Shown here piece by piece: positions 1,425-37,146 of a stretch of 39,216 nt of DNA. This DNA is from a virus (taxonomy: Duplodnaviria > Caudoviricetes). Location of the stretch: positions 1-39,216 of IMG/VR virus record IMGVR_UViG_3300032212_000062. The stretch is one strand, 5' to 3'. Numbering within the stretch: position 1 is the first letter of the stretch; each line of letters begins with the position of its first letter. The position numbers and the translations under genes were made by a program. The notes under the pieces were generated by a model, which ran no database searches, had not been told where the DNA came from, and saw only the letters and a program-made list of their open reading frames with translations.

Positions 1425-1981
1425 TGGCCATTGTAGATTATGGAACTTTAAAGACTGCATTTGCTACTTTATCAAAACGTGGTGATACTGTTAATTATGT
1501 AGACACATTGATGGGACTTGCTGAGAAGCGGATAGCAACTGACTTATTGACTCAAACTATGGAAGTTAATTATGAGCTTGTTTGCAATGCCAAATGGAAT
1601 GCTCTTCCTGCAGATGTAATAAAAATAACAAAAATAAATGATGAAGATGCAGATGTTGATGGCAAATTTGATTCATATGAAATAGTTGGTACAAATTTAA
1701 AGACATCTCCTGTATCTAGTGCTACAAATGTTGTTAATGTAAATATCAATTATTATGCAGAACCTGACACATTAGTTAATGATGCAGATTCTCATGCAAC
1801 ATTAGTTAAGCATTCAAATGTATACTTAGCTGCACTTATGTTGGAGTTTGCTATTTACAAAGAAGATGACAAAATGATAGGTAAGAGATTACCTTACTAT
1901 CAAGATGCAATTGAGCAAGCAAATACTATAGCTAATGAAGTTAAGTATCCAGGCGGCTCACTACAAGTGAGGAATATCTAA
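1424..1981 (+). CDS. Head-tail adaptor protein
   Basis: Y.TLK.A...N-terminus, LPAD and YLAAL.LE motifs typical of podovirus adaptors; first gene of the tail cluster. Confidence 0.65.
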   Translation: MAIVDYGTLKTAFATLSKRGDTVNYVDTLMGLAEKRIATDLLTQTMEVNYELVCNAKWNALPADVIKITKINDEDADVDGKFDSYEIVGTNLKTSPVSSATNVVNVNINYYAEPDTLVNDADSHATLVKHSNVYLAALMLEFAIYKEDDKMIGKRLPYYQDAIEQANTIANEVKYPGGSLQVRNI

Positions 1982-2958
1982 TGCCTTTAGAAGATTTAAC
2001 AGGTACTGGTAAATTTATAAGTGATCTTGACGTTACTAGCCCTGCTGGTGGTGAATCAAAAAGTGATGGTGATAATCACATTGCTGGTATCAAAAATGTT
2101 ATTCGCAATACGTTTATAAATATCACTGGGCAGATAACTGCAACACATCTTGAAATTAATAAAGTAGAAGGTGTTACTGGTGGCACTGCTTTAGCAAATA
2201 AAGCATTAGTTCTTGGTGCATCTAGAACTATAGATTATATAAATGTAACTACTCTTGCAATTGGTGGTACATCTTTGACAGTATCTGCAGCTACTCTAAA
2301 TGCAGTAAGTGGAACTAATACAGGTGATCAGACTACAATTACTGGAAATGCTGGTTCTGCTACTGTTTTGCAAACAGCCAGAGCTATAGGTGGTGTTTCT
2401 TTTAATGGCTCTGCTAATATTAACTTGCCTGGAGTTAATGCTGCAGGTAATCAATCAACATCAGGCAATGCAGCAACTGCTACTGTACTAGCAACAGCAA
2501 GAACCATAGGTGGTGTTAGTTTTAATGGCTCTTCCAATATCAACCTTCCAGGTGTTAATGCTGCTGGCAATCAAAATACTAGCGGTAATGCAGCAACAGC
2601 CACTACAGCCAGCAATATAACCGGCCAAGGCGCGTTGGCTACGCTTAATTCTGTAGGCGCAGGGCAGATAGATGCTAACGCTGCAACAGGGGATAAGATT
2701 AACACCACTGCTTTAGCTGATACAAGTATAAGTGTTGCTGCATTAGATTTTTGGTATCCACCTAAGGGTGTGTATGACTTTTATGAGACTAGCACCACAC
2801 CCTATCTTGATTTAGAAGTTAATTTTGCCGGTACTTGGAGAACTTATGGCAGATTACGGAATATAGCTTCTGTAGGTGTTTTTTGTGATGGTACAAATGT
2901 TCGAGTAAAAAACAATTATAGCGTAGTTGCACTAAATTGTCTTTATAGACGGTACTAG
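1981..2958 (+). CDS. Tail fibre / receptor-binding protein
   Basis: Podovirus fibre N-terminus (I.DL....P......GDNHI..IK.V...TF) followed by A/G/T/N-rich ATVL.TAR.IGGVSFNGS.NI.LPGVN repeats. Confidence 0.85.
   Translation: MPLEDLTGTGKFISDLDVTSPAGGESKSDGDNHIAGIKNVIRNTFINITGQITATHLEINKVEGVTGGTALANKALVLGASRTIDYINVTTLAIGGTSLTVSAATLNAVSGTNTGDQTTITGNAGSATVLQTARAIGGVSFNGSANINLPGVNAAGNQSTSGNAATATVLATARTIGGVSFNGSSNINLPGVNAAGNQNTSGNAATATTASNITGQGALATLNSVGAGQIDANAATGDKINTTALADTSISVAALDFWYPPKGVYDFYETSTTPYLDLEVNFAGTWRTYGRLRNIASVGVFCDGTNVRVKNNYSVVALNCLYRRY
2341..2610 (+). repeat. 120-bp (40-aa) tandem repeat in the tail fibre, about 2.2 copies
   Basis: Units start at 2341, 2461 and 2581 (TGNAGSATVLQTARAIGGVSFNGSANINLPGVNAAGNQST / SGNAATATVLATARTIGGVSFNGSSNINLPGVNAAGNQNT / SGNAATAT), differing mostly at synonymous sites. 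Confidence 0.9.
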
Positions 2959-3010
2959 TAAAACAAGAATGCACTGTATTTATAGTAACGTAATAAACTT
3001 AAGGAATAAC

Positions 3011-3196
3011 ATGAAATACTCAATACTAATAATCACAGCCTTACTACTATCAGGCTGCAACCAAACTAAAGAAGATACAGTCGCCTCTAAGTGCAGGCTT
3101 AATTTACCGATTGTTAAAGCAGAGTGTGAGGCTGCAGGTGTTTACAGTAAGCAAGGCGGCAGAATGAAAGGCTTGCCTGTTACTGATGACCTTTAG
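3011..3196 (+). CDS. Small lipoprotein (61 aa)
   Basis: AAGGA RBS then MKYSILIITALLLSG-C: signal peptide II with lipobox LSGC and two further Cys. Confidence 0.8.
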   Translation: MKYSILIITALLLSGCNQTKEDTVASKCRLNLPIVKAECEAAGVYSKQGGRMKGLPVTDDL

Positions 3197-3249
3197 TTGC
3201 ATAAAAGCAAAAGAGACAAAACAAATTTAAAGTTCACTAGAGATATAAG

Positions 3250-9809: not shown

Positions 9810-10865
9810 CTAAATCTCATCTCCTAATAGTAATGTTGCTACAGGATGGAAAGGAATTCCATCTGTGGTTAATTGGGCATACTCCACTCTAACTGAAGTT
9901 CCCAAATACTTTGCCTTATTCTCCATAACATAATGCTTATTGGCAACTGGGCCTGGACAGGTCACCCTGAACCTTGCCCCATTATTTGCTAGACATACCA
10001 ATATTGCCCAGCCATCTTTAGATGGAACAATATCAACTATAACAAAGTTATCATCTTCCCAAGATTTAACCTTAATCAAACTCTTTGATCTTTTGCCGTC
10101 CTCATATCCATTATTGTGTAGTCTAACAATAGAGCCTTCATACCCAAGCTCACGACTTTCTTTAAAGTGAGCCTGTACTTCTTCAAATGATTGCACCTCT
10201 ATTGTTTCTGCTATCTCCATTGCAGGAGTAAGCGGAATCATATTTAACATTGCATATCTACGAGAATATGGAACATCAGCTATCATATCATACATGTGAT
10301 ATTTAATTTTAAGCGTATCTGCCTGACCTCTTTTTATCCATGATACTATTGTTTGAAGAGGATGTCCATGACAGTAAAGTTCTCCATCAATAGTTTGTCC
10401 TTCTAGTAATTCAAGACCATCAAGGATGTGCCCAATAGTATTGATTGGTTTACCATTTCTTGTATATGCAATGATTGTTCCTTGTTGGCAAGTAATAAGG
10501 CATCTATTGCCGTCATATTTCCGTTGTACATATGCCCCTTTATAATCAACTCCTTTGCAATTTTTAAGTGGAGCTGCGAGCATTGGTTTTGCATATCCAA
10601 GTATGTTGGTAGCTTTGCCTGTTGGTAGTTCTGGTCTATATCCTTTGTCCCTTTGCTTAGAAATGCGAGAAGCGATTCGTGACATAATTTGCTCCTCTCT
10701 TGTTCTAGTTGCTTTCCCTTCTTCAACTTCTTCTGTGACTCGTAGCATTGCTCCATCTTTCTCTCCATGTTCTATGACAATAACATAATCTTCAACGCTA
10801 ATAGCCCATTCACGTATCTTGCCACTATTATCTTGCATAAACATTCTTGTTGGATTAGTGTTCAT
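9810..10865 (-). CDS. lig: ATP-dependent DNA ligase with an N-terminal WGR-like domain
   Basis: KPMLA, motif I QRKYDGNR, YTRNGK, IDGELY, GYEGSIVR, KRS..LIKVK and a C-terminal OB domain (GIPFHPV). Start ATG 10865 preferred over 10961. Confidence 0.92.
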   Translation of the reverse strand: MNTNPTRMFMQDNSGKIREWAISVEDYVIVIEHGEKDGAMLRVTEEVEEGKATRTREEQIMSRIASRISKQRDKGYRPELPTGKATNILGYAKPMLAAPLKNCKGVDYKGAYVQRKYDGNRCLITCQQGTIIAYTRNGKPINTIGHILDGLELLEGQTIDGELYCHGHPLQTIVSWIKRGQADTLKIKYHMYDMIADVPYSRRYAMLNMIPLTPAMEIAETIEVQSFEEVQAHFKESRELGYEGSIVRLHNNGYEDGKRSKSLIKVKSWEDDNFVIVDIVPSKDGWAILVCLANNGARFRVTCPGPVANKHYVMENKAKYLGTSVRVEYAQLTTDGIPFHPVATLLLGDEI

Positions 10866-10947
10866 CTTCTTCATCCTCTGATTCTTCTTTCTTTTCCCAG
10901 AATAATTCTTCTTCACGATCTTCATCTGTCCAGCTAGGATTTTGCAT
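10855..10947 (-). CDS. 30-aa highly acidic peptide (not in the ORF track)
   Basis: MQNPSWTDEDREEELFWEKKEESEDEEDEH*. Preceded by GGGAGAAAGAGA; overlaps the dnaE stop and the ligase start. Confidence 0.6.
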   Translation of the reverse strand: MQNPSWTDEDREEELFWEKKEESEDEEDEH

Positions 10948-13795
10948 TCTCTTTCTCCCAATCAGTTAAATTAAGTATTTGATCAATTTCTAACTTGCGC
11001 CAGTCACCTCTCATTCTTCCTTTAATTAAGAACCATGTTTCACCTTCTTTTGATGTCTCAACTATCCGCTGGCCTTCCATCTCCTCAAAGACGTAGCGGT
11101 TGATAACACACAGTATCTGATCAGTATCATCCTCAATCAGTAAGCGGAGATATACAGAGTTCTCATCATACACAACCCCATTACGCTTAACAACTTCATT
11201 GTAATCATTTAGATCACGAAGGTCACGCATAATTAGCTTACCTATGACTGTATACAATCCAGGTTGATCAATTGCCTTAATCTCAGAAGGTGCTTCAGAT
11301 AAGCCATATGTAATAGGGTCATTATAGAATTTACCCCAATAGTGCTGAGTTGGGAATAGTATATCAAATGGAGTTACTGGATACATTAGCTTCTTGAATA
11401 ATCCAGGTGGCAATACTTTTCTACTCTTGCGAGCATTCATAATCTGCTTAGCCTTAGCTTCACCTATGCCATCTATGTTCATAAGACCACCAACTAACCG
11501 GCCATCTTGGATTGACCATTCCATCTCTGATAGGTCTGCATCTACAGGGTCATACTCAAAGCCTTCATTAACTACAAGATCACGGAGCAGCTTAATAGCG
11601 GAATCTGTATCTCTTGCATTGTTAAGATTAGCTATGGCAAACTCCATAGGATGGTGAGCCTTCATGAAGCCAGTCCAATAAGAGATAAGACCATAGGCTA
11701 CAGCATGAGATTTATTGAATCCCCATGAACCAAATGTAACCATATTTTCCCATACAGCAATAGCCTCTTCATCTGGCACTTTTCTAAGTCTTGTCCCTTT
11801 CAGAAAGTTGTCTCTGTATCTATTGAAGAACTCTTCACCAAGAGACTTGGATGCAGCCCTTCGCAGATCAGATACATCTTCCCAAGATAGGCCACCAAAC
11901 TCACGACCTATATACATCAGCTGCTCTTGGTAGATAATAATGCCAAGAGTCTCTTCAGTGTGCTTGATGTAGATAGGATCATTTGAAATATACTCAACCT
12001 CAGAAGCACCTGTTCTTCTTTTAACGAATGAGTTCGCTCCACCACTATGCATAGGGCCAGGCCTAGCAAGCGCAGTAATAGCGACAATGTCATCAAAATT
12101 ATGAATTCCCATTTGGTTTGTAAGGTACTGTAGAGCTTGTCCTTCAAATTGGAAAATGCCATTATATCTCCCTGAATTGAATATATTAAATGTTTCCTGA
12201 TCTTCAAGAGGAAGTCTATACAAGTCATTGTAGTTCATACCAATTTGACTCATAGTCTCCTCAAGGATAGTCAGTGTTCTTAATCCTAAGCAATCTATCT
12301 TAAGCAAGTTTAGATACTCTGCATCTTTCTTGTTGAGCATAACTACATCATCTCTACTATTTGTAGAGGCATAGTTTGTCAGCGGTAAAGTAGATACTAG
12401 TATTCCAGCTGCGTGCTTGCCGGCATGGGAGGCATGATTTTCAATCCTACTTACCAAACGCATAGCAGGGTATTTAGCAATGAACTCTTTGCCAATATCA
12501 GTACTGTCAAAAGTATCGGCAATACACATAGCAGCACGAGCGTCACCACCAGACCTTTCGACAATCGCGTTTTTGAGTTCTTCCGTTTCATACTTAGGGA
12601 TTGATAGACCCATAGCGAAATCACCAATAGCAGACTTAGGCTTAAGACGAGAAACATTAGCGAGACATCGTACATTTTTGTGTCCATATTTATGAGATAG
12701 ATATTTAACAACCTTTGCTCTTTTCTTATCAGGGAAGTCAATATCAATATCTGGAAGGTCATGTCGGTTGATGTCAATGAAACGTTCAAAAAGCAAACCG
12801 AATTTAATTGGATCAATTTCTGTGATGCCCATAAGGTAACATACTAGACTTCCCGCTGATGAGCCACGTGATGGCCCAACTAGCATAGACTGTTTAGCAT
12901 ACCTTATCATATCTGCAACTATGAGAAAATAATCATTGTACCCTTTTTGCTCAATGAGTCCAATTTCATATTCATAACGATCTTTGTAGATAGGGTCATC
13001 AAGATCAACATCTAAATGAATAGCCCCTCTCATACAAGCTCTTGTTACAGTTTCTGGCCCTGTGTACTTTACAAGTTCTGCCATCTCTAATTCTGCATTA
13101 CATATCTCAGCAATAGAGTAGGTAGAAGCTATGGCATAGTCTGGGTCTCCTGTCTCTGCAGTGAACTCAGAATCAGTCAGCCGGTGAAGCGGATAAGTTG
13201 CATCTTCAAAGTTATAGCTATAGCCAGTGCCATTCTTTCTAGCTCCTGCAAGTAGTTGATACACTTCTTTATCTTCTACATTTGGGTATCTGGCTATGTC
13301 TATCGCTACTGTAGGTTTATTAGGGATATTTAAGCCCTTATTATCTACGCTAATGCTGCTATAATCTATTCTCTCAAGAGTTTTTCTTAATTCTATAGTA
13401 GTATAAGGGGCTATTACTAAAACGTTCTTAGAAGTCCTTAGAAAGCGTGTAATATCTACCCTTGGGAAGTAGTAAAAATTGTCCCAAGCGTATGTAGTAA
13501 GTTCATTGATCTCCTTGAGACCTTTATTGTTTTTGGCTAAGAAGATCATCTCAACTCGACCATTAGAAGATTGATTAGCAGACCTTGCTTTCTCAACCAT
13601 GTCACACACCGTAAGGCGTACACCAAAGATAGGCTTGACACCTTTCTTAATGCACTCTCTGGCAAACGATACGTGTCCTAGTGTAGTGTTAACATCTGCT
13701 ATACCCATAGCCTCATAGTCCTCCTTGACTATTTCAGATATGTGACCAAAGCAGCTTTTAAAACTAAACTCAGTTTTTGTAGCTAGATAGATCAA
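10934..13795 (-). CDS. dnaE: DNA polymerase III alpha subunit (family C)
   Basis: GPSRGSSAGSLV, LLFERF, PDIDIDF, HAAG, LLKIDCLGL, GIFQFE, IIYQEQ and FNKSHA motifs. Probable TTG start at 13795 after GAGGAAGG. Confidence 0.96.
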   Translation of the reverse strand: MIYLATKTEFSFKSCFGHISEIVKEDYEAMGIADVNTTLGHVSFARECIKKGVKPIFGVRLTVCDMVEKARSANQSSNGRVEMIFLAKNNKGLKEINELTTYAWDNFYYFPRVDITRFLRTSKNVLVIAPYTTIELRKTLERIDYSSISVDNKGLNIPNKPTVAIDIARYPNVEDKEVYQLLAGARKNGTGYSYNFEDATYPLHRLTDSEFTAETGDPDYAIASTYSIAEICNAELEMAELVKYTGPETVTRACMRGAIHLDVDLDDPIYKDRYEYEIGLIEQKGYNDYFLIVADMIRYAKQSMLVGPSRGSSAGSLVCYLMGITEIDPIKFGLLFERFIDINRHDLPDIDIDFPDKKRAKVVKYLSHKYGHKNVRCLANVSRLKPKSAIGDFAMGLSIPKYETEELKNAIVERSGGDARAAMCIADTFDSTDIGKEFIAKYPAMRLVSRIENHASHAGKHAAGILVSTLPLTNYASTNSRDDVVMLNKKDAEYLNLLKIDCLGLRTLTILEETMSQIGMNYNDLYRLPLEDQETFNIFNSGRYNGIFQFEGQALQYLTNQMGIHNFDDIVAITALARPGPMHSGGANSFVKRRTGASEVEYISNDPIYIKHTEETLGIIIYQEQLMYIGREFGGLSWEDVSDLRRAASKSLGEEFFNRYRDNFLKGTRLRKVPDEEAIAVWENMVTFGSWGFNKSHAVAYGLISYWTGFMKAHHPMEFAIANLNNARDTDSAIKLLRDLVVNEGFEYDPVDADLSEMEWSIQDGRLVGGLMNIDGIGEAKAKQIMNARKSRKVLPPGLFKKLMYPVTPFDILFPTQHYWGKFYNDPITYGLSEAPSEIKAIDQPGLYTVIGKLIMRDLRDLNDYNEVVKRNGVVYDENSVYLRLLIEDDTDQILCVINRYVFEEMEGQRIVETSKEGETWFLIKGRMRGDWRKLEIDQILNLTDWEKENAKS

Positions 13796-14339
13796 TGTGG
13801 CCTTCCTCAACTAACCAATGGAAACATCTTACCAAAGCATGTACATCAGCTTTAGCTCTGTGAGCACCTTCAAAAGGCTTACCAGTTGCTAACTCATGCA
13901 ACTTAGCAAGATTCAAACGATTTCCTTTGATGTGATTAGACTTCTCAACAGTACATATGTGATTAACCGGCCATGGAAAATGAATGACCTTATCTATCCG
14001 TACTAACTCATTTGCTAACATAGATACATCAAAGCTAGCATTGTGAGCAACTAAGCAATCTGAGCCTTTAAACACTTCAGCGATCTGCTTGTACATAGCG
14101 GAAAATTTAGGTGCATCCTTAACCATATCATCATTGATGCCAGTAATCTTAGTTATCACATCAGAGATAGGCAAAGTAGGATTCAAGAATGTATCAATCT
14201 CTTTTATGATCTCAAACTTCTCATTGATCTGAACTGCATATAGCTCAATGATCTCTGGTTGCTGAGCTACGTTAGTAGCATTAGGGCGCAACAACCCTGT
14301 AGTCTCTGTATCATATACAGTCATTAATAATTCAGACAT
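13770..14339 (-). CDS. dnaQ: DnaQ/epsilon-like DEDDh 3'-5' exonuclease
   Basis: ExoI YDTETTGL, ExoII AHNASFD, ExoIII HRAKADV; directly upstream of dnaE. Confidence 0.92.
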   Translation of the reverse strand: MSELLMTVYDTETTGLLRPNATNVAQQPEIIELYAVQINEKFEIIKEIDTFLNPTLPISDVITKITGINDDMVKDAPKFSAMYKQIAEVFKGSDCLVAHNASFDVSMLANELVRIDKVIHFPWPVNHICTVEKSNHIKGNRLNLAKLHELATGKPFEGAHRAKADVHALVRCFHWLVEEGHIDLSSYKN

Positions 14340-14715
14340 TATTCTTTCCTTCATTAGCCCAATCACGATCATCAAACTCATCACCGTAACGTTTCATATG
14401 CTCAATGATTGCTGCAGCATTAAACATAATGTTAGCCATATGATTCTGCTTAATCTCAGGGTCATTGTTTTCGCAGTTATGGAAAGCAGTTAAGTGACGA
14501 AGAAGGCTATTCTCCATCTCAGTAATTGGCATACCATTCTTCCAATTATTCCGCTCATACTTCTCTGCACCAGCTTCCATGACTCTTGTCCAAGCTTCTA
14601 TAGCTGCAGGGAAGTCAAGCATATAAGATAGTTTTGGCTTATCTTCATTCTTACGCATCATTGGAGATTTCTTAGCTGTCTTCTTTTTTGCTACTTTCTT
14701 TTTACGTGGTGCCAT
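14332..14715 (-). CDS. dATP/dGTP diphosphohydrolase domain protein (DUF5664-like)
   Basis: KP.L......A......VM..GA.KY...NW..G......SL.RHL......E..DPE....H.A....N pattern. Confidence 0.82.
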   Translation of the reverse strand: MAPRKKKVAKKKTAKKSPMMRKNEDKPKLSYMLDFPAAIEAWTRVMEAGAEKYERNNWKNGMPITEMENSLLRHLTAFHNCENNDPEIKQNHMANIMFNAAAIIEHMKRYGDEFDDRDWANEGKNNV

Positions 14716-15224
14716 TATACTTTCCTCAATTGAGTTACTAATGCAAGATTACGTTCAGCAATCCCCATGATAACATTTAGGTGAACTTCAAACATCCAAT
14801 CTACCCCATTACAATTCTTGTCATAGTATGGGTTGTTGAATAGTGTTTTCCAAGTATCTTCTGTGAAGAAGGACTTGTGATCCAAATCTTGAAATGCCAT
14901 GTTAGATGTATAGTAAGGAACTACTATGCTTATGTGTCCACCTGGTCTTAGTACACGTTGGCATTCGGATAGAACAAAGCGTGGATCAGATAGATGCTCA
15001 AGGAAATGATATGCATGTATCTGAGATACTGATTCATCTTCACATGGGATGGCATCTGACTCAGCATCCCACTCAGGGAACTCAAGCGGACGAGCACCAT
15101 AGATTTGCTTATTGCCAGGCCCAAGGTTCAACACTTTATGACTCTCTGGATCATAATCATATAGTGCTTCTGGAATAGCTCTATCCATTCCAAGAGTGAA
15201 AATCTCTGCTAAACATTTAGACAT
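14715..15224 (-). CDS. Class I SAM-dependent methyltransferase (Methyltransf_11-like)
   Basis: VLNLGPG motif I, IP..DESV..I.A.HFLEHL, RVLRPGG...I.VP and D..H motifs. Start 15224 follows AGGAG and overlaps the upstream stop. Confidence 0.85.
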   Translation of the reverse strand: MSKCLAEIFTLGMDRAIPEALYDYDPESHKVLNLGPGNKQIYGARPLEFPEWDAESDAIPCEDESVSQIHAYHFLEHLSDPRFVLSECQRVLRPGGHISIVVPYYTSNMAFQDLDHKSFFTEDTWKTLFNNPYYDKNCNGVDWMFEVHLNVIMGIAERNLALVTQLRKV

Positions 15225-15661
15225 TAGTAGTCTCCTTTTTTGACTTGAAAAGTAGTTATGCCTTTTTCTCTCCACATATCTACTACTTGTGAACGATCTT
15301 CAAATGCATAGTGAACATCATGCCCAGACTCTAGTAGCAGATTAAGCATTTCTTCTTTTACTACATAATCACTTCTAAAGTCTTTGGCAGCCCTCATCAG
15401 AAGAACTGAACATGGTATCTCATGCTCATTCAGCCAGTCCATAGTCTTCTGCTCTATTCTGCAAGACCGGCCTGTACACATCACTATGTGGTATCCTGCG
15501 TCTCGCATTACATGAGTCATCTCTATGATTCTATGATAAGGTGCATCCTTATCACAATCATCATTAAAAGCATCCCAGTCCTTATCATCTTTCTGAATAT
15601 GATGAAGTCTATGGGATATGTCGGCTAGTGTTCCATCTATATCAAATATTGCAGTTTTCAT
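15224..15661 (-). CDS. HAD-family phosphatase (T4 PNK 3'-phosphatase-like, no kinase domain)
   Basis: IFDIDGTLAD motif I, CTGR motif II, LLMR...D.R.D..VK and FEDR..VV.MWR motif IV. Confidence 0.9.
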   Translation of the reverse strand: MKTAIFDIDGTLADISHRLHHIQKDDKDWDAFNDDCDKDAPYHRIIEMTHVMRDAGYHIVMCTGRSCRIEQKTMDWLNEHEIPCSVLLMRAAKDFRSDYVVKEEMLNLLLESGHDVHYAFEDRSQVVDMWREKGITTFQVKKGDY

Positions 15662-16533
15662 TATAATGGTATCCCATCTTCGAATCTTGAACAAATTTTC
15701 ATTTCATCAGACGTGAGATAATGAGGGCACTCATCAGTTCTAAAGTGATCACATTGCCAACAATGATTTTCTGAAGCCATAGACATGCCATCTTTAGCAA
15801 TAGGATTAGCTACATGAGTAGTCTCTTCAATAGCCTTGCGACAGTTTGCTTTAGACTCCATAAGAGTGGTTGGCAGCAATCTGTTTATAGTATGCTCTTG
15901 AATAGGACATTCTTCATATCTTGGGAAAGCACAGGTGCCATACCAGCTACAGTGTACTTGGATAAACTCCTCTGCCCATGGGTGCTGTCCAATAACCAGT
16001 CTCTTAATTTCTCTGAAGACATCTTGATACACACCGGCTGTTCGTGTACATAATCGTACAAGTGCCATATTATGAAGTGTGCGTAAGTCGAACTTAGCAA
16101 TGATAGAAGTATGAGTTCCCGTTGGTAAGATTTCCCTTGCCTCCTGCACTGGGATGTCCTCATCGACCATTGAGGCGTATGCTTCGAATATGTGATCTCT
16201 GAGGCCATCGAAGTGTCCATTTGTCTCCGGCCAATCACACCCGTGTCCCCTGACATCAACTGTTCTCTGAGACTCTTGAGCATAGCTACCTGTTCTTGTT
16301 CGAACAAGTTGGTGTGTAAACGAGCGTGGAACTTCTGATATCTTGAACGTGTATTCAACGAACTCAAATGAGCTTTGAATCGTGTCCAGCATATATTCAA
16401 AATGTTCTTTCTTTTTCTCATCAGGCCACTCCTTTATATCCTGTAGTGATTGAGCACCCTGTAAGCGGGTATTCTTGGTAAATAGCAACAGCTCCAAGGC
16501 ATCTTGGGTGCAACTTAGCAGTTCTACTTTCAT
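15661..16533 (-). CDS. thyX: Flavin-dependent thymidylate synthase homologue with atypical motifs
   Basis: YTF.I..V.R.FTHQLVRTRTGSYAQESQR, AR.ILP and LR.L......RLC motifs. The canonical RHR is RTR here. Confidence 0.85.
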   Translation of the reverse strand: MKVELLSCTQDALELLLFTKNTRLQGAQSLQDIKEWPDEKKKEHFEYMLDTIQSSFEFVEYTFKISEVPRSFTHQLVRTRTGSYAQESQRTVDVRGHGCDWPETNGHFDGLRDHIFEAYASMVDEDIPVQEAREILPTGTHTSIIAKFDLRTLHNMALVRLCTRTAGVYQDVFREIKRLVIGQHPWAEEFIQVHCSWYGTCAFPRYEECPIQEHTINRLLPTTLMESKANCRKAIEETTHVANPIAKDGMSMASENHCWQCDHFRTDECPHYLTSDEMKICSRFEDGIPL

Positions 16534-16534
16534 G

Positions 16535-17416
16535 TTATAGTCCTATCTTGTTTCTGTTATATCCAGTTGTATAGATCAACTCTTTAATCTTATACAAATC
16601 TTTTAAAACATCATCCATAAGTACATTCTTCCATATGGCAAATCTTCCTGCGCTATATACATCATGAGTAGTTGTCAACTCATAAAGGAGTCTATGACGC
16701 TCTGTCTCATCTATGTTCTTTATCTTACCATAATCTTGTACAGTAGACTCTATTATTTTAGATGGATAATCTACTCCAAATGAATGAACTACATATTCAA
16801 GATCAGCTAGTATAACAGGAGCAGTACTTTCAATGATTAGATCATCTCCAGTTATTGTAGCTCTATATACACAACAATCATCATCAGGATAATATAGAGT
16901 TTGATACACATTGCACTTAGGCACTTTGTATCTTCCTGTAAATATCTTTTGGAATGTAAATTCCGCTGATGTCTCTATGCCAGCTGACCGTAGAGTATTT
17001 GTTATAGGGATTGTACTGATTACAGTCTCTGCTGGGATATAATCTAAGCGTTGGCCTAGATGTATTCTACTCTTGACAAGATTCACTAATCTTTCTTGGA
17101 AGTTAGCAGGAGCAATATAGCGCTCAACTGAATCTAAATTCCATATTGATCTATCAGCTGTATGGCCTAATACTTTTTTGCTATACATATTAGCTAACAT
17201 GATATTTGGTTGGAGGTATTCACCTCTGACATAAATGCCTTTTCTTACTGTTACTTTCTTAAATGGGATGCCAGTAACTTTGCTGACAGAGTCATCACGA
17301 AAGCGGAGAACTGCATTGTGATTGATTGGTAGTATATCATTTGCTTCAAAGATATGTGCTTCAGGGAATATCAAACTAGCTAAACAGCCGGTCATTCCTG
17401 CGCCTATTATTAACAT
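16535..17416 (-). CDS. FAD-binding flavoprotein (UDP-galactopyranose mutase / protoporphyrinogen oxidase-like fold)
   Basis: N-terminal IIGAGMTG dinucleotide-binding motif with downstream IFEA, plus ISTIP and SAGRFAIWK...MD motifs. Confidence 0.75.
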   Translation of the reverse strand: MLIIGAGMTGCLASLIFPEAHIFEANDILPINHNAVLRFRDDSVSKVTGIPFKKVTVRKGIYVRGEYLQPNIMLANMYSKKVLGHTADRSIWNLDSVERYIAPANFQERLVNLVKSRIHLGQRLDYIPAETVISTIPITNTLRSAGIETSAEFTFQKIFTGRYKVPKCNVYQTLYYPDDDCCVYRATITGDDLIIESTAPVILADLEYVVHSFGVDYPSKIIESTVQDYGKIKNIDETERHRLLYELTTTHDVYSAGRFAIWKNVLMDDVLKDLYKIKELIYTTGYNRNKIGL

Positions 17417-20063: not shown

Positions 20064-20232
20064 AATATTTGCCTTTAGTAGTTAAAATCACATAACAAGT
20101 AATTCAACCAGACGCTGAACCCTTGTTTTGTTCACTTGTATTAACTTCTGCTTTGTTTTTTATTTTGCTCATAGTAATTCTCCTTTTCGTTTATAATAAG
20201 TCGTTTAATTCCGACTCGCTAGTGTTTGCTCA

Positions 20233-20493: not shown

Positions 20494-20505
20494 ATTTCCT
20501 TTAGG

Positions 20506-21408
20506 CTATGCCTTGTTTACCTTCAATAATATGTCTTTGATTTCAGGAATCATATCCCATCTACTACACCCTTTTTCTTGATCTTTTAATGACAATTCTT
20601 TTCCATTCATTTCACAAGTCCACTTACCTTCATCTTCAATGCAACCTCTAACACAACTTCTGCAATTCTTTAAAGGCATAGCATCTGATTGGCATACTGC
20701 TTTAGCATCACACCACTTACATTCAAACCATGTAGCATTGCCTATCCGCTTTGGTGGGATTGTAGAAGTTAGAATATCCATCCCAACAGATTCAAGATGC
20801 TCAAATTCATCTTTATCAAAGTGTACTCTTATATAGTGACGCTCCTCAGTGTCCTTGTTAGTAGCTACAAAGAAGGCACGATCAATCTTAAGCTTGCCCA
20901 TATATGAATTAAGTTGTCCATAGTATACAGGAAACACTTTCTTGATTGCTTCCTGATTGGCACCTGCTTTGTAAAGCTCTTTCCACTTACTAGATTTCAT
21001 AGTTTTGAATTCAGCTAGATGCTCTGTCTTTTCAGCACCTGGCAATCCAAGGATTCTACCATCAATATGTCCTTTGATGTGAGAGGCTAGACCAATGATC
21101 TCTTCCTGCTCTTCACCTATTGTTCCAAATATTTCAACATGGTTGCCTTCTTCATCTACACGATAGACTTCACAACCTATTGCTTTAAGGTCTCTGATGA
21201 TACGTGCTTCTTCAAGGTCACCACGCTCAAATATGCGCTTCAATCTTTGAGTGATAACCTTCTTGAAAGTCCAGCGGAATCCTAACCAAAGGTATCTCTT
21301 GCAAGGATGTGCAAGTCCAGAGTATCCTAGATATGGCCTAGGCATCTGAACTATATCATTGTTATCTAAGGAATCCTGTATAGGATTATTTATTGGTATA
21401 AGTGCCAT
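20506..21408 (-). CDS. Cas4-like PD-(D/E)xK exonuclease
   Basis: RPYLG.S....C.R.LW, GHIDG, EFKT, YYGQ...YM, CKWC....VC and a second Cys cluster CRSC..C..C. Confidence 0.85.
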   Translation of the reverse strand: MALIPINNPIQDSLDNNDIVQMPRPYLGYSGLAHPCKRYLWLGFRWTFKKVITQRLKRIFERGDLEEARIIRDLKAIGCEVYRVDEEGNHVEIFGTIGEEQEEIIGLASHIKGHIDGRILGLPGAEKTEHLAEFKTMKSSKWKELYKAGANQEAIKKVFPVYYGQLNSYMGKLKIDRAFFVATNKDTEERHYIRVHFDKDEFEHLESVGMDILTSTIPPKRIGNATWFECKWCDAKAVCQSDAMPLKNCRSCVRGCIEDEGKWTCEMNGKELSLKDQEKGCSRWDMIPEIKDILLKVNKA

Positions 21409-21692
21409 TACTTTGCCTCCTTTTGATCAGGTTCAGGCAGTGGCCATGGATCAACATCTACAAGATCAAGATCATTAATCTCAAATACTTCATAGAATAA
21501 ATCTTTACCTTCCATTATGATGCGTCTACGCTTATTGCCAGAGTGATCAAGCATGCGATAAGATACATCATCAGGGAAGTGTTCAAGAATACCTCTAACT
21601 GCTGCATCCTTAGTTGCATATCCACCAGCAAGAACTTCACGTATTGGAAGCTCTTCATCTGATCTAAATACTCTTTGAATTATGAAATTCAC
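21408..21692 (-). CDS. Hypothetical protein (94 aa)
   Basis: AGGAG RBS and GTG start; TAATG coupling to the exonuclease. Confidence 0.7.
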   Translation of the reverse strand: MNFIIQRVFRSDEELPIREVLAGGYATKDAAVRGILEHFPDDVSYRMLDHSGNKRRRIIMEGKDLFYEVFEINDLDLVDVDPWPLPEPDQKEAK

Positions 21693-21717
21693 TTTATTCT
21701 CCTGTTTGGTTTTTGAA

Positions 21718-21778
21718 AAGATGACTGGCTACGAATATGTTATAGGCATATCCATCAAGAAGTGTAACCAATCACCTT
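21718..21778 (-). ncRNA. Candidate structured RNA element (long stem, one-sided bulge, upper stem)
   Basis: GGUGAUUGGUUAC pairs with GUAGCCAGUCAUC (13 bp, 3 G-U); inner GGAUAUG/CAUAUUC stem; 10-nt bulge. Pairing works fully only on the minus strand. Confidence 0.45.
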
Positions 21779-21781
21779 ATT

Positions 21782-21803
21782 AAAAACGCCTCATCCTTGA
21801 GGC
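21782..21803 (-). terminator. Intrinsic terminator after the SSB gene
   Basis: GCCUCA-AGGA-UGAGGC followed by GUUUUUA. Confidence 0.65.
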
Positions 21804-21811
21804 TAGCATAA

Positions 21812-22318
21812 CTAGTCTTCATCTTCTGCAAATGGGTCAACACCTTCAGCAATAGCACCACCTTCTATAGCAAAATACTTGCTAATCTCATTCTTGGCAG
21901 GAAATGAGTTAGATGCAGGAATCAGCTTAAGATTAAAGCCAAAAGGCTTGCTATGTAGTTGAGTTGAGTCAACAACTTCTGCAACGCCACAAGCATCAGA
22001 TAATGAACGTAGTTCTTTCATTGAATTTTCAACTGCAATAGGATTAGGATTAACAATATTAAGTCCAATAAAAATTGAACGGCCAATTGTACCTTCTGGC
22101 CCATCAAGAATCTTAACAGTCATATTTAGACGTTTTCCAGACTGATCATGCTCACCTAATTCAGCAGACGCCTTAGTCTGTTTAATACCAGATTTAACAA
22201 TCTCACCAGTGTAGTCAATAGGTACACCTCCCTCTGCTGTAGGCAGCGGAGAGAAGTCATCCATTGTTTCATGGTCTTGAGCACGGAAAACTTGTGGAAG
22301 CATAGTAGTTTCATTCAT
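21812..22318 (-). CDS. Single-stranded DNA-binding protein, DUF669-like
   Basis: F.PLP...Y..EIV, KILDGP...GR.IF..LNI.NPN..A....K.L..L..ACG; acidic C-terminal tail DPFAEDED; follows the Sak4-like ATPase. Confidence 0.78.
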   Translation of the reverse strand: MNETTMLPQVFRAQDHETMDDFSPLPTAEGGVPIDYTGEIVKSGIKQTKASAELGEHDQSGKRLNMTVKILDGPEGTIGRSIFIGLNIVNPNPIAVENSMKELRSLSDACGVAEVVDSTQLHSKPFGFNLKLIPASNSFPAKNEISKYFAIEGGAIAEGVDPFAEDED

Positions 22319-23046
22319 TATTTCTTACCTTCATCTTTAGTTGTTTGGACATCCTTCTTTGGCGGAGTCCTAGCCATAATCTTCTTGATGATTGCAGTCA
22401 TATTCGGTCGCTCAACAGGCTTGAGTTTTCCGCTTCTGTCCTTGGCATCATGAGTGATACTAGGCTGAGTTTGTAGATAACGATACTCTTCATCTACTCC
22501 ATCAACCTTCATAGTGCCTATCCTGAGTGAAAACACTTCATCAGTCAGGTAAGGCATCTCTCTGTTGAGAGTTTTCCCAGGCATAGATGCTCCATAGGTA
22601 GTTATACCTGTGTGATCATCTGTTATTCTGGACTGTTTAGCTATAAATAGCACATTCTTTTTTGGAATATCACGAAACTTACGAAGCAGCTTCATGAATT
22701 CATCATTCAATTTGCAATAAGCCTTACGGCCATCAGCATATTGACTAGTATATTCACCCAACATCCTCTCAGCTAGATCAGATATTGAGTCAATACATAT
22801 AGTTTCAAACTCATCTCCTTCTGGACCAGTTACCATGTCATAAGCTTCATTGAATTCATCAATACTTATAACTTCAATTACAGGAATATCCATCTCAGAT
22901 AAGGACAAAAGCCCTCGCTCAGCGGAAATTATGATTGGCTTTGGGCAAGTTGCACAGAGTGTAGTTTTACCTACCCCTGAAATTCCGTAAACAGTAGTTT
23001 TTACAGAATCAACTGCATGCCTAGTGTTGGATATCTTAACTGGCAC
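22318..23046 (-). CDS. Sak4-like (AAA_24) recombination ATPase
   Basis: Walker A YGISGVGKTT, Walker B ICIDSIS and AKDRSGKL. GTG start at 23046 after GGAG. Confidence 0.85.
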   Translation of the reverse strand: MPVKISNTRHAVDSVKTTVYGISGVGKTTLCATCPKPIIISAERGLLSLSEMDIPVIEVISIDEFNEAYDMVTGPEGDEFETICIDSISDLAERMLGEYTSQYADGRKAYCKLNDEFMKLLRKFRDIPKKNVLFIAKQSRITDDHTGITTYGASMPGKTLNREMPYLTDEVFSLRIGTMKVDGVDEEYRYLQTQPSITHDAKDRSGKLKPVERPNMTAIIKKIMARTPPKKDVQTTKDEGKK

Positions 23047-23410
23047 TAGTGTCTCCTTCCAATTCTTCTGCACTTTGTGTTTTTTCAAGCTCAATATTAG
23101 CAGCCTTAACTGCCATATTAGCATTAGTGTAACGAATAGCCTTCCAAATGAATTCAAGACCTTCTTCATCTAGCCTTAACATATCAGTCATAAGTGCAAA
23201 TTGATCTGGAACCCAATTATTTGGAGATACCATACCACCTGCAATACGAATTCCATTATCATTACTAGACAGACCTATGTGTGCAATGGCGCATGCACCT
23301 ACTTTGTCACATTCTAGCATAAATTCATTGAACTTTTTGAAAAGATCACTAGACTCATCATCAAAACTTTCTGACAAATCATACATTGGTCTTTCATTAT
23401 TTTCGCTCAT
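23036..23410 (-). CDS. Hypothetical protein (124 aa, acidic)
   Basis: AGGAG RBS; part of a coupled early operon. Confidence 0.7.
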   Translation of the reverse strand: MSENNERPMYDLSESFDDESSDLFKKFNEFMLECDKVGACAIAHIGLSSNDNGIRIAGGMVSPNNWVPDQFALMTDMLRLDEEGLEFIWKAIRYTNANMAVKAANIELEKTQSAEELEGDTSAS

Positions 23411-24904: not shown

Positions 24905-27163
24905 GTGAAGATTACCAACTTCCAAGGGAATCAGATGAATGCCACTGGTGGCATAGTCAGAGAAGTGTCAATAGAAGATTTAGCAGAATTGTTTAATGAG
25001 CCACGTAAGGGCAATAAGCATATAGGCTATTTTGTTAGAGGTGAACTTAATCCACCAGAGAGAAAAGATGCATACTTGGCTTCCGCTGATATGTTGGTTC
25101 TTGACGGTGATGCAACTAACACAGATGACAGTTCCTGTTGTCCTCCTATTGACGTCAATATGGCATTGACTGAGATGAATATAAATCATGTTATTTATAC
25201 TACTCACAGTCATAGCTTCAATAAGAATAAGTTCAGGGTTATAATACCTTGTACAATAACAAGCAAGGACAATTTAAAGAGTACCGTTTTAGCTATACTA
25301 AAGGAGTTAAAAAATAAGGATGTTGACATTAAGAATGTTAAAGAGATGTCAACTTGGACTCAGCCATGGTTTATACCTAGCAGAGATGATCCAACAGATG
25401 GAATGTTTGAATTCTATTCTTACACAACAGGTGATGATTATGTGGAATCTGAAAGTAGTTTTGGTATCAACGCTAGCGACATTGTTTCTAATAGCCCTAG
25501 CGATGATGGCAATAGGGCTGTGGTCAGCAGTCCTTCTGAAAGTATATCTGATATTATTCGCTGCATAACTAATGGTGAAGAAGGTTTACACCATGCAGTT
25601 AACAAATATGCTTATATGCAGGTTAAGGATGGTATAGCTCCTAACACAATAGTTGCTACACTACAGGGTCTAATGTCAGCATGTCCTTCTCAGGATGAGC
25701 GATGGCAAGAGAGATATGCAGATATACCTCGCTGTGTAGATGGTGCAGTAAACAAGATGGTTGAAGAGTCTACAGTAGATGTTACTGATCTCAATACCAA
25801 AGGCAGTGAGGCTATAGCTGAAATACCTTGGCCACCTGGCTTACTTGGTCAACTAGCGGAAGATGCATATCAAACACAAGTCTATCAATATCGTGAGGTT
25901 GCGGTAGTTTCCGCTGTAGGTTTGGTTGCAGGCATTGCCGGTCGCAAGTTCAATGTATCCAACACAGGATTGAATGTATATCTAACTCTTATCATGGATA
26001 CTGGTATGGGTAAGGATTCCATTGTCAAGTTCATAAGTCGTGCATTGTTTGATATTGTTGATGAAGGCGATGGCCTAGCAACTAGCTCCTTTCTTGGCAA
26101 GTCCAAGTTCACTGGTGCTAAAGCAATAGTTAATAGGATGAAAAGTGCATTATCGCAAATATCTGTATTTACTGAAGCAGGTCTACTCATGCAGACCAAG
26201 AGTGGTGATCAGTCTGGCATACTTAGGACTTTACTTGACATTTATACTAAGTCTGGTAATAATGATATCTTCATTGGGGCTGAGTATAGTGACGAAGACA
26301 AGTCTGTTCCTAACCTTCGTGCTCCTGCACTTAGCATTATCAATGAGTCTACTGCTGATAGCTTACAGCAGGCTTTTAAGGATAACAATAGTATTGACTC
26401 TGGCCATCTTCCTCGTCAGTCTATATATAGAGTAGTCGGCGATAAGCCATATCGTAATTGGAACGCCGGTGAATCTCATATATCTGATATATGTATGGAG
26501 AAGTTGAAAGAGCTATCAGTCAAGTGTTCTAAGGTTCAGGCAATAAGTGATCCTAAGGCATGGGACTTTTATTTTGCAGAAGGTATAGGCAAACGTGCTA
26601 GTGAACTAGAGCAATTCTATACTGATGAGTATAATACATTTAGAGGTACCAATAATACTAAGGCTAACATGGCATCTCGTATGCCTCTGAAGGCTTTGAA
26701 GTTCGCAGCTATTGCATCTGTCTTTAATCACCATGAGCTTGTTATTCATAAGACTGAATGGGAATGGGCTGAAGCATTAGTTAAGTATGAGTATGACGGT
26801 GTTGATAGCTTCTTTGTCTCAGCTGGTAGCGGAGAGATGGGCGATATTGTAACTCACGTAGTTGGTCCATGTATCATTAAGATGCTCAAGGGAGGCTACA
26901 AGTCTTATAAGAGTAGTATTAGTACCATTGATAGACACGCCGGTATTATTCCTTTGTCTGTTCTATCATTCAATCTTAAGTCCAACACTGCTCTTAAGAA
27001 ACTGGATGATGATGCAACATTCAGAACTAATCCAAAGACAGGACTACAGAAGATACTTGATCATATGATTCAATATGAGTATATCAAGATAATTAAAGAC
27101 CCACATGGTAGACGCAAACAAGTCTATAAAGTAACTGATCAATTTAGGACATTAATGTCATGA
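24905..27163 (+). CDS. Primase (AEP/prim-pol-type N-terminus) fused to a DUF3987-like helicase domain
   Basis: LVLDGD (DxD), IYTTHSH....KFRVIIP and QPWFIP in the N-terminus; WPPGLLG, NVY......TGMGKD P-loop and DSG.L.R in the C-terminus. Confidence 0.8.
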   Translation: MKITNFQGNQMNATGGIVREVSIEDLAELFNEPRKGNKHIGYFVRGELNPPERKDAYLASADMLVLDGDATNTDDSSCCPPIDVNMALTEMNINHVIYTTHSHSFNKNKFRVIIPCTITSKDNLKSTVLAILKELKNKDVDIKNVKEMSTWTQPWFIPSRDDPTDGMFEFYSYTTGDDYVESESSFGINASDIVSNSPSDDGNRAVVSSPSESISDIIRCITNGEEGLHHAVNKYAYMQVKDGIAPNTIVATLQGLMSACPSQDERWQERYADIPRCVDGAVNKMVEESTVDVTDLNTKGSEAIAEIPWPPGLLGQLAEDAYQTQVYQYREVAVVSAVGLVAGIAGRKFNVSNTGLNVYLTLIMDTGMGKDSIVKFISRALFDIVDEGDGLATSSFLGKSKFTGAKAIVNRMKSALSQISVFTEAGLLMQTKSGDQSGILRTLLDIYTKSGNNDIFIGAEYSDEDKSVPNLRAPALSIINESTADSLQQAFKDNNSIDSGHLPRQSIYRVVGDKPYRNWNAGESHISDICMEKLKELSVKCSKVQAISDPKAWDFYFAEGIGKRASELEQFYTDEYNTFRGTNNTKANMASRMPLKALKFAAIASVFNHHELVIHKTEWEWAEALVKYEYDGVDSFFVSAGSGEMGDIVTHVVGPCIIKMLKGGYKSYKSSISTIDRHAGIIPLSVLSFNLKSNTALKKLDDDATFRTNPKTGLQKILDHMIQYEYIKIIKDPHGRRKQVYKVTDQFRTLMS

Positions 27164-27378: not shown

Positions 27379-27667
27379 TATATAATATCTGTATATTGAA
27401 ACTTCCTACGGCTACCCTAACTACCTGTTTTCTACCGATAATTCTACTGGGAAAACCTATAGAAATCAAGGACTTAGGAGCGTTTTTAGGTAAAAGTAGA
27501 TAAAGAGTGTTCGCGGGGGTGTGGGAATAAGAGGGGGTCAGACAGCTACCCTTAAGCTATAATCTATCCTAAGTTACTAATTTATATAGTATTTATTAGT
27601 AGTTATTAAGGTAGATAGAAGGAAGTTTGTAGAAGTCCAAAACTACCAAAAAAGGGTATAAAACATT
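27379..27667. other. Non-coding region with CTAC(C)/(G)GTAG repeats, candidate replication origin
   Basis: Five CTAC units within 27405-27448, GCTACCCT at 27411 and 27545, inverted copies further right, and an AT-rich tract at about 27570-27608; directly downstream of the primase-helicase operon. Confidence 0.4.
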
Positions 27668-28048: not shown

Positions 28049-28071
28049 GAAAGCCGGTCATATAGACCGGC
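28047..28071. terminator. Hairpin terminator between convergent genes
   Basis: GCCGGTC-ATATA-GACCGGC at 28053-28071, followed on the minus strand by TTTCTC. Confidence 0.55.
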
Positions 28072-28089
28072 CTCCAGTTAGATTAGTGG

Positions 28090-28461
28090 TTATTGCTTAG
28101 CAGCCCAGATAGCATTAGTCAATAGAGCCTCATTCTGGTAGATAGATTCATGACGCTTGGTATTTGCCGAGCCATGCTCCTCAATGAAGCTGCCAACCTC
28201 AGCGGGAGTCTTGGTACCTTCTAATAGGAAGGCATGGAACATAGCGGTAAACCCAACCCGCTTTACAGCTTGGCCAGTCTCCTTAAGATATAAAGAGAAT
28301 ACAGAACCCGCTTTGTTAAAGCTCAGCTGGTGCTTACTAACCAGACCAACCTTAATTAGATCCACCTCAACCCCATTTGCTAAAGATGACTCTATATAGT
28401 CAAAGATAGGTGCTGGGATAGTAGATTGAGAAACCTTATTTGCTTTAGTAGATTTAGACAT
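28090..28461 (-). CDS. Hypothetical protein (123 aa), stand-alone gene; paralogue of 17491-18099
   Basis: AGGAAG RBS; upstream TTTACT-16-TATATT (28544-28517); shares the R.G.T..FH..L...IE..G..NTKRH.S.YQ motif. Confidence 0.8.
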   Translation of the reverse strand: MSKSTKANKVSQSTIPAPIFDYIESSLANGVEVDLIKVGLVSKHQLSFNKAGSVFSLYLKETGQAVKRVGFTAMFHAFLLEGTKTPAEVGSFIEEHGSANTKRHESIYQNEALLTNAIWAAKQ

Positions 28462-36148: not shown

Positions 36149-36149
36149 T

Positions 36150-36497
36150 ATGGCATTTGTACAACAGGATAGTGTATTTAAAACAACTATAACTCACCAA
36201 GGGAATGGTGAGGTTGTTACTACACTTGAGCAAAAAGACAGAGGGTTGATCCTTGATCGCAACCAGAAGCTACGTAATAGCCATGGTGTTATGAATGATT
36301 TATCTTTTGGTAGACAGATTGCATCTATACCATTTGAAGATTGGGAGTGGTTCAAAAGAGCTAATCCTGATTATCACAAGGTGTGTAAAGAAGATCGTGA
36401 AAAGATGCTATTCAACTTTTTGAAAAATACGCCTCGTGGACAAGCTTGTATGATTGTTGATGAGAGTCATAAAAAGTATCACACGGTGACAAAATGA
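36150..36497 (+). CDS. Conserved head-region protein (115 aa)
   Basis: ATG 36150 immediately after the upstream stop; IL.RN..LRN...GRQIASIP...W motif. Confidence 0.7.
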   Translation: MAFVQQDSVFKTTITHQGNGEVVTTLEQKDRGLILDRNQKLRNSHGVMNDLSFGRQIASIPFEDWEWFKRANPDYHKVCKEDREKMLFNFLKNTPRGQACMIVDESHKKYHTVTK

Positions 36498-36604
36498 AAA
36501 CTATTAAAAAAGTTGTTAAAAATAAGCGTACATTAATTGTACACAACCAAAATGCCGTCAATGCTATAGTTAAGCGTGGCCAAATAATCAAGAAGGCGAG
36601 GTAG
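36494..36604 (+). CDS. 36-aa basic peptide (not in the ORF track)
   Basis: MKTIKKVVKNKRTLIVHNQNAVNAIVKRGQIIKKAR*. ATGA overlap upstream; ends 2 nt before the next ATG. Confidence 0.55.
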   Translation: MKTIKKVVKNKRTLIVHNQNAVNAIVKRGQIIKKAR

Positions 36605-36606
36605 TT

Positions 36607-37146
36607 ATGTCAACGAAACCAATAATTGTAGGTAGTGGATTAGTTGCAGATAGAGATGCTCTTGATGCAAAAGATTTGCCAATTCATGGATTATTTGTCT
36701 ATACTAATGGTGATGTAGACCAATGGTCAGGCACTCAATGGGTAAGTATAAGCACTAACGGTGCAAAGCATGCAAGACCAATTCCCGGCACAGGTGAAAC
36801 AACCAAAGATCGTTACAACAACCCAGATGCTATATATGCAGAATCTACAAACTCATGTACATGGACGGCAAAGGAAAATGTAACTGAGATTTATATCACT
36901 ATATTTGGGGATGCCGCTACAACAACAGATAGTCACGGATGGGTGGTGTTTGATGCTATTGATTCAGCGGCTGCTGTGACTTTACTTGGCGCTACTGTAG
37001 GTCCTGCTGTAGGTCCTGCTGTAGACGTTCAGAAGAAGCCTCTTAAGTATGGAGAGCGAAATGGCCCGTTTAATGGTGTTGATTATTTTACTAGATTAGA
37101 TGTTGGTTTAACAGGTGATGCTGTGATGTTTGTGGAGGCGCAATAA
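36607..37146 (+). CDS. Putative virion accessory protein (179 aa)
   Basis: GAGG RBS; beta-rich; W.G..W motif; in the late operon. Confidence 0.6.
   Translation: MSTKPIIVGSGLVADRDALDAKDLPIHGLFVYTNGDVDQWSGTQWVSISTNGAKHARPIPGTGETTKDRYNNPDAIYAESTNSCTWTAKENVTEIYITIFGDAATTTDSHGWVVFDAIDSAAAVTLLGATVGPAVGPAVDVQKKPLKYGERNGPFNGVDYFTRLDVGLTGDAVMFVEAQ

Follow-up and report, generated by a model that had tools for sequence, protein, structure and literature searches.

Within the genome of a tailed virus (Caudoviricetes; IMG/VR record IMGVR_UViG_3300032212_000062), the pentamer AGCGG, mostly extended to AGCGGA, recurs throughout the protein-coding DNA, which raises the question of what this word is for and what reads it. 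The stretch analysed (39,216 nucleotides, hereafter the window) is a complete 39-kb podophage genome that is circularly permuted, with a 127-bp terminal overlap. An original prediction, made from the letters of the window, had taken the word for a cis-signal with near-regular spacing, and had named lagging-strand priming by the phage primase as its lead hypothesis. Our analysis indicates that the AGCGG(A) array is a real, selected cis-signal, and that the word is probably the recognition site where the phage primase-helicase (encoded at 24905–27163) starts primers on the lagging-strand template.

The counts on which the original prediction was based proved exact, with AGCGGA occurring 27 times on the + strand and 11 times on the – strand (i.e., as TCCGCT) at matching coordinates, and with AGCGG accounting for 59 of the 71 GCGG/CCGC tetramers. 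The pentamer itself forms a top-strand array of 40 sites (1527–36970, +) and a bottom-strand array of 19 sites (6866–36918, –; CCGCT on the + strand), and its consensus reads H-AGCGG-R-W-D, in which the three 3′ positions hardly ever hold a C. When the codons were shuffled synonymously within genes (300 shuffles), only 5.7 (+) and 2.0 (–) copies of AGCGGA were obtained, with maxima of 12 and 7, respectively, meaning that the word lies ca. fivefold above this null on both strands; it is also the top 6-mer of the window. A second null, for which codon usage was drawn from outside the motif, predicted 2.1 top-strand copies in + genes and 0.6 in – genes (13 observed in each), and 0.9 and 1.1 bottom-strand copies (5 and 6 observed, respectively). 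This null was exceeded on the top as well as the bottom strand, so that the enrichment applies to both. The word occurs in all three codon phases, only 1 of the 59 sites is intergenic, and none of the 59 precedes a start codon on its own strand by 30 nt or less. The bias towards the + strand (40:19, binomial p = 0.009) was likewise borne out, and is kept in + genes (19:8) and in – genes (19:10). Together with the strand-specific evenness described below, the enrichment over the codon nulls upholds the claim that a selected cis-signal is laid over the coding sequence.

The spacing of the sites required a more differentiated reading. The reported cluster of gaps of 874–988 bp could be reproduced, as ten AGCGGA gaps fall in one 120-bp band (p = 2e-4; ca. 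0.001 after correction for 8 widths), but a fixed ruler of 0.9–1 kb had to be abandoned, with median gaps in relatives ranging from ca. 0.3 to 2 kb per strand. Similarly, under-dispersion was found for AGCGG on the + strand (coefficient of variation (CV) of 0.69, p = 0.004), which is the most even (rank 1) of 306 5-mers with similar counts, but not for AGCGGA on the + strand (CV of 0.81, p = 0.18) or for the – strand (CV of 0.91); the bottom-strand array has a single short gap where 4.0 would be expected (p = 0.04). In 20 genomes of the clade, there were 296 same-strand pairs at most 300 bp apart vs. 435 expected (below expectation in 17 of the 20), whereas opposite-strand pairs numbered 461 vs. 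410 expected and were therefore not depleted, with much of their excess due to the palindromic CCGCGG in one genome (G004). Evenness was also evident over 18 strands (Fisher p = 1.9e-14; two of these strands are from phage Kmi2C), and the window alone contains 10 opposite-strand pairs within 100 bp, the closest being 19 bp apart. In the window and its relatives, the word recurs evenly, ca. every 1–2 kb, on each strand considered by itself, and it is read strand by strand. Of the originally listed alternatives, a genome-coating protein is disfavoured if orientation-blind, since only same-strand sites repel each other. GCCGG was considered as a gap-filling secondary site and rejected, as its addition did not lower the CV.

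Judged by primase and DnaE, Vibrio phage VA-RY-3 and Cronobacter phage Ss1 come closest to the window among cultured relatives, and their gene sets are almost identical to that of the window. In VA-RY-3 (33/51, 14 expected in all), Ss1 (32/27, 13 expected), Vibrio phage PVA7 (23/31) and the relative G001, AGCGGA again ranks first among 6-mers, although the PVA7 counts need caution since most genes in its record (L086, PQ582223.1) are fragmented, probably by sequencing error. In further relatives the word varies, i.e., CGCGGA (G004), GCCGGA (G012 and G013), CACGG (G005, G014 and G015), AGTGGA (G016) or CCAAGG (G017), and the other enterobacterial phages Kmi2C and BP63 carry TGTGGG in place of AGCGGA. 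No AGCGGA excess was found in Pbunavirus 14-1 (50 of 66 kb) and Ralstonia phage PY059YO380, which share the DnaE. Because AGCGGA is the top word in both Vibrio and Cronobacter phages, it follows the phage and not the Chi of the host. Individual positions were conserved mostly at background level in eight pairwise comparisons: 11 of 34 window sites were kept vs. G001 (background 0.23, p = 0.14) and 5 of 41 VA-RY-3 sites in Ss1, while nominal significance was reached only for G001 to the window (p = 0.03) and G002 to L182 (p = 0.01). Since sites are mostly not conserved in position, the array appears to be maintained by turnover. As a separate observation, two loci (L015 and L017) carry a strand-biased AAGGGGTTA-like word that is clustered and uneven, and is possibly an operator or origin repeat.

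The putative reader of the word is a primase-helicase of 752 aa (24905–27163, +; PHROG 3022 DNA primase, E = 6.5e-57) for which AlphaFold returned a model with a mean pLDDT of 85. Its N-terminal part (aa 1–185; 24905–25459, +) is an archaeo-eukaryotic primase (AEP)-type catalytic domain with motifs D67-x-D69 and S102-H103, of which D67, D69 and S102 are invariant among 51 homologues and H103 is present in the window protein. This domain matches NrS-1-type catalytic domains by profile (probability 93.8%, E = 1.7e-7) and the S-2L PrimPol by fold (Z = 7.5, root-mean-square deviation (rmsd) 3.9, 137 residues aligned). After a disordered linker, the model shows five helices forming an ancillary domain (aa 213–288; 25541–25768, +) that may act as a template reader resembling a helix-bundle domain (HBD) or PriCT; it has no Pfam match, and PriCT_1 occurs in 32–96% of the members of ESM-atlas neighbours of aa 1–295. 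The remainder (25835–27160, +) comprises an MCM-like AAA+ helicase (DUF3987, aa 311–635; fold match to an MCM at VIA Z 18.8, rmsd 3.5, 252 aligned) and a C-terminal winged helix, with DUF3987 being present in 46 of the 51 homologues. According to PMC5862659, such an AEP, ancillary domain and helicase architecture occurs in AEPs of mobile elements, with PriCT and Zn-binding domains alternating. Within the clade (L092–L183), catalytic domains (window-type or RepB-type) and ancillary domains are freely exchanged on one MCM-like helicase. Sequence searches of the PDB with the primase profile and with the Cas4-like protein of the window yielded nothing useful.

To relate word and reader, 36 loci with the window-type helical domain were compared with 67 loci having an NrS-1-type primase on a related helicase (loci <9 kb, 18 re-fetched copies and 17 near-duplicates were left out of the comparisons between primase types). 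AGCGGA was significant in 16/36 helical-domain loci and in 0/67 NrS-1-type loci, and conversely CCCACA/TGTGGG was significant in 28/67 and 0/36, respectively, with TGTGGG emerging as the top 6-mer of the NrS-1-type group without prior choice. At the level of these loci, the comparison shows that word type follows primase type. Moreover, TGTGGG contains the site GTGG, and GTGG/GTGA is the measured site of NrSPol, which is bound by the HBD and has initiation 5′ of it (PMC8718748); likewise, the pRN1 primase starts at GTG via its HBD, in which the binding residues include some of the last helix (PMC13469122). Among 12 named phages compared, GTGG words were enriched and even in BP63, RHEph06, BcepGomr, PBAB25 and Kmi2C, weak in phiadh and 536P12 (for both, the stretches fetched gave no Cas4 match), and missing in H40/1 and AcaML1, in which Cas4 is present and no NrS-type primase match was found. 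In addition, the GCGG core persists in G004 and L108, where a RepB-type catalytic domain has been swapped in and the helical domain retained.

Within the helical domain, Arg276 (codon 25730–25732), located in the last helix, discriminated best when 2,624 columns from 11 protein alignments were scanned over loci having a clear word. It was present in 21/22 loci with a GCGG word vs. 0/7 others (p = 5e-6). In a follow-up on 28 further loci, several of which duplicate earlier genomes, the domain could be aligned in 24, and a GCGG word ranked among the top four 6-mers in 14/14 loci with Arg, 4/5 with Lys or His and 1/5 with another residue. Arg276 thus covaries with the GCGG core and is a candidate specificity residue, although duplicated genomes and residues shared by kin make it a lead rather than proof.

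The strand distribution of the word around the primase gene provides a further indication. When 28 loci with the gene layout of the window were pooled, the top:bottom ratio was 73:135 in the 3 kb before the primase stop codon and 129:67 after it, and among 22 clade loci the shift to the primase-sense strand right of this stop went up in 20 and down in none. Against the codon null, the observed/expected (o/e) ratio within the primase gene was 6.7 for antisense vs. 1.7 for sense, and within terS it was 5.4 for sense vs. 0. The TGTGG words of the 67 NrS-type loci shift in the same sense as GCGG (47 up, 11 down), and in phage phiadh a rep_origin is annotated directly after the primase gene. This pooled polarity flip at the primase 3′ end in both primase groups suggests an origin there, for which the intergenic stretch that follows the primase gene and a small ORF (27379–27667) is the candidate in the window, as deduced from relatives and not visible in the window alone. 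Since GTGG lies on the known template strand and GCGG has the same polarity, the AGCGG strand is likely the template, and forks may leave just past the primase gene; in the alternative orientation, with the other strand as template, the A after each word could be read as the first primer base. A purely one-way fork is not supported, given the enriched arrays on both strands and the polarity switch. Sequence-specific priming by the prim-pol is the part of the original hypothesis that the comparisons support best, whereas a fixed period of ca. 1 kb likewise lacks support. Separately, a very sharp AGCGG polarity switch was seen in G002 (L005, 16000–32341) near 23.3 kb, just past a primase gene with a Zn-type domain.

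In the proposed mechanism, the helical domain (aa 213–288) would bind 5′-GCGG-3′ on the exposed template, comparable to the pRN1 HBD on GTG, with Arg276 near the read-out, and priming would begin immediately 5′ of the word. Replication would start near 27.4–27.7 kb and proceed mainly rightward with a short leftward arm, which would yield the 2:1 excess on the + strand. The DnaE-type polymerase and ATP-dependent ligase, encoded together with a proofreading exonuclease at 9810–14384 (–), would elongate the primed fragments of ca. 0.5–2 kb and seal them. Finally, CG loss (o/e 0.42) might erode redundant close sites while one per interval is kept, which would result in even spacing and site turnover. 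More broadly, lytic phages with an AEP primase-helicase might, at a likelihood we place slightly short of even, encode their Okazaki map as self-renewing even arrays together with a helical-domain recognition code; in that code, which we hold just as tentatively, a basic residue 276 would go with GCGG and other residues with CCGG, ACGG or GTGG.

Sequence-specific priming by HBD primases is already known and, to our knowledge, the site specificity of primases has been measured for only a few enzymes. Like the window protein, the helix-bundle AEPs of pRN1 (ORF904, GTG) and NrS-1 (NrSPol, GTGG/GTGA and TTTGGTTA) combine AEP, helical ancillary domain and helicase in one chain; their sites are short, G-rich and asymmetric as AGCGG is, and with respect to the primase gene the strand polarity of GTGG in NrS-type phages equals that of GCGG. 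In contrast to both, the word here is GCGG with a context of 6–7 nt, the helicase is MCM-like and a separate DnaE polymerase is encoded; in addition, no sequence homology to the NrS-1 HBD could be detected for the ancillary domain, and the sites make up selected, even genome-wide arrays of a kind missing from NrS-1. For the DnaG-type enzyme T7 gp4, an extended subset of strong sites ((G/T)2GTC with 3′ flank) every ca. 1–6 kb has been proposed as Okazaki starts either side of the origin; there, the core word is common, with 177 pentamers, and the strong sites are clustered in part (PMC12839067), whereas the word here is rare, ca. fivefold enriched and self-avoiding on each strand. According to the same source, T7 Okazaki fragment size was reported to be independent of site number. 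No paper on evenly spaced, enriched phage priming arrays was found in the literature searched, which covers few subscription journals, and no title in the AGCGG/Chi/phage and Ss1/VA-RY-3 literature (screened by title) describes the word.

Selection appears to hold rare sites at even intervals through protein-coding DNA, and the analysis supplies a predicted site (5′-AGCGGA-3′ on the template), a candidate residue (Arg276), natural word variants and a candidate origin, all of which can be tested in two cultured phages, Ss1 and VA-RY-3. If true, the priming map and probable origin could be read from the genome sequence, and primase specificity, fragment length and origin position would become predictable for a whole enzyme class. 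A phage genome of this kind could lose the cis-signal if recoded with synonymous codons.

Several observations nevertheless weigh against the primase as reader. An hhalign comparison detected no homology between the helical domain and the NrS-1 HBD (probability 2.6%). Within the clade, a clear word is missing in G003 and G019, the AGCGG enrichment of G018 is only local and is uneven, while G002 and L182 are strongly AGCGG-rich despite a Zn-type domain replacing the helical domain and a RepB-type catalytic domain (in G002, AGCGG reaches 106 vs. 33 expected, and its spacing is not even). The GTGG array was not seen in NrS-1 itself, B025 or Baskent_P4_1, and the NrS-1 genome consequently failed as a positive control (TGTGGG 9, CCCACA 2). 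With respect to Arg276, L139 lacks it and keeps GCGGA, L183 and L134 possess it and have no clear word, one of the five follow-up loci with a non-basic residue has five GCGGCG copies, and in an 11-vs-8 whole-genome scan the residue was tied with Q505 of the primase and I199 of the protein encoded at 17491. The CACGG phages G005, L122 and L125 are mutual nearest neighbours in the superfamily 2 (SF2) helicase, the Cas4-like nuclease and the 17491 protein, but not in the helical domain; over 17 six-protein loci, motif similarity correlated with SF2 at rho 0.34 (p = 0.016) and with the helical domain at 0.22 (p = 0.10). Mantel tests singled out no one protein (helical domain 0.29, SF2 0.33, terL 0.37), and the SF2 and Cas4 trees were dropped as discriminators since they are uninformative at the deep level, where the split matches the deep line of primase type. 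Regarding polarity, no switch is apparent when the window is taken by itself (3/2 left, 6/4 right), and the control 5-mers AAGGA, AAGAG and CCATC switch as strongly as the motif. Finally, the loci are related and several are mutual duplicates, so the p-values are inflated. The G002/L182 pair, the CACGG grouping, the undetected HBD homology and the array-less clade members leave room for a Chi analogue or a tandem helix-turn-helix (HTH)-like reader.

The first of these, a phage Chi analogue, appears unlikely. It would involve the RadD-like SF2 helicase (E = 3.4e-55) and Cas4-like nuclease, encoded with SSB (DUF669) and Sak4 at 18250–23169 (–), which would resect DNA ends until the polar word makes them pause or cut; the further step, by which single-stranded DNA would be passed to Sak4/SSB for recombination-dependent replication, seems equally unlikely. 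Polar, strand-separate and even sites would suit a translocating reader, the CACGG and AGCGG[T/C] phages cluster by SF2/Cas4 even where the primase differs, and the word is identical to the Chi pentamer of B. subtilis AddAB (PMC4824097), which, as in Chi-rich P1, is polar and laid over coding DNA on both strands. However, no Cas4 column separates the word classes (best p of 0.01 and 0.002 in two scans), Cas4-bearing H40/1 and AcaML1 have neither a GCGG nor a GTGG array, phiadh and 536P12 show weak GTGG words without a Cas4 match, and the agreement between the word of the sister group and a measured primase site would have to be a coincidence. The word also differs from known Chi sites in tracking phage lineage across hosts with a Chi of the E. 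coli type, in shifting to GCCGG, CACGG or CGCGG in relatives and in extending to AGCGGAA.

Quite unlikely, in our view, is a reader in the form of a clade-specific all-helical protein with tandem HTH/homeodomain-like three-helix units (17491–18099, –, with a paralogue), which would bind the word in double-stranded DNA and, in a polar manner, load or organise the replisome or the packaging motor. The protein is clade-wide (19/19 clade genomes scanned), its residues H185 (p = 6e-4) and I199 (p = 1e-4) covary with the word class, the CACGG trio clusters by it and its three-helix units are weakly homeodomain-like. Yet its fold matches remain at background (best VIA Z 5.8), no homologue was found in Kmi2C, whose array is equally even, and a plain double-stranded DNA binder would not be expected to give repulsion between same-strand sites only. 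The fold comparisons gave nothing clear, which does not demonstrate a new fold. A paralogue at 28090–28461 has the C-terminal unit in common, and no family could be assigned.

Programmed nicks in virion DNA or base-modification targets, as in T5, phiKMV-like and tf/LUZ24-like phages, are very unlikely. Those nick sites resemble the word in being short, asymmetric and dispersed through genes, the capsid proteins of the window and of the nicked phage tf are related (29.8% identity), and a dGTPase, a methyltransferase-like protein and ThyX are encoded. Known nick sites, however, lie on one strand only, number 8–14 and keep their positions (PMC3517423), whereas the words here occupy both strands (ca. 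60 sites, including the close opposite-strand pairs) and turn over. With regard to modification, no DNA-methyltransferase family was found among the 49 ORFs of the window, the spacing is strand-specific, and Ss1 and VA-RY-3 carry the word without dGTPase or methyltransferase (Methyltransf_11) genes. Mimicry of a host AddAB Chi, or a by-product of CG or restriction-site avoidance, is hardly credible: although AGCGG equals the B. subtilis Chi, phage P1 selects the Chi of its host (bioRxiv 10.1101/2021.07.08.451572) and CG is depleted elsewhere in the window, Chi mimicry was rejected as largely refuted by host independence, since the carriers available in culture are phages of Cronobacter and Vibrio, extracts of enteric bacteria and of Vibrio harveyi react to the E. 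coli Chi GCTGGTGG (same preprint), and the word changes by phage lineage (GCCGGA, CACGG, CGCGGA), while counts exceed nulls that ignore CG loss and avoidance alone yields no strand-specific evenness.

Apart from the word, the window encodes an SU10-type portal, capsid and adaptor as well as a block of replication genes comprising ligase, DnaE, exonuclease, ThyX, RadD-like SF2 helicase, Cas4-like nuclease, SSB, Sak4, primase and RusA, within which the primase gene is transcribed divergently. A cluster at 14332–17416 (dGTP diphosphohydrolase, Methyltransf_11, HAD phosphatase, ThyX and a protein with an N-terminal nucleotide-binding-like motif) is patchy among relatives and is a possible nucleotide-modification module. 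CG depletion is strong throughout the window, AGATCT, ATCGAT and ACCGGT have zero copies and GAGCGG is scarce (4/59 sites), possibly reflecting restriction-site avoidance. A second CG word, GCCGGT/ACCGGC, is retained in 22 copies (37–39006), and 27 of the 28 CCGG in the window are CCGGC on one strand (ACCGGT 0, GCCGGC 1); its spacing is not even, and no enrichment was seen in G001, VA-RY-3 or Ss1. The same word ends a 13-bp direct repeat found at 24359 and 25937, and forms an inverted pair after RusA (28053–28072).

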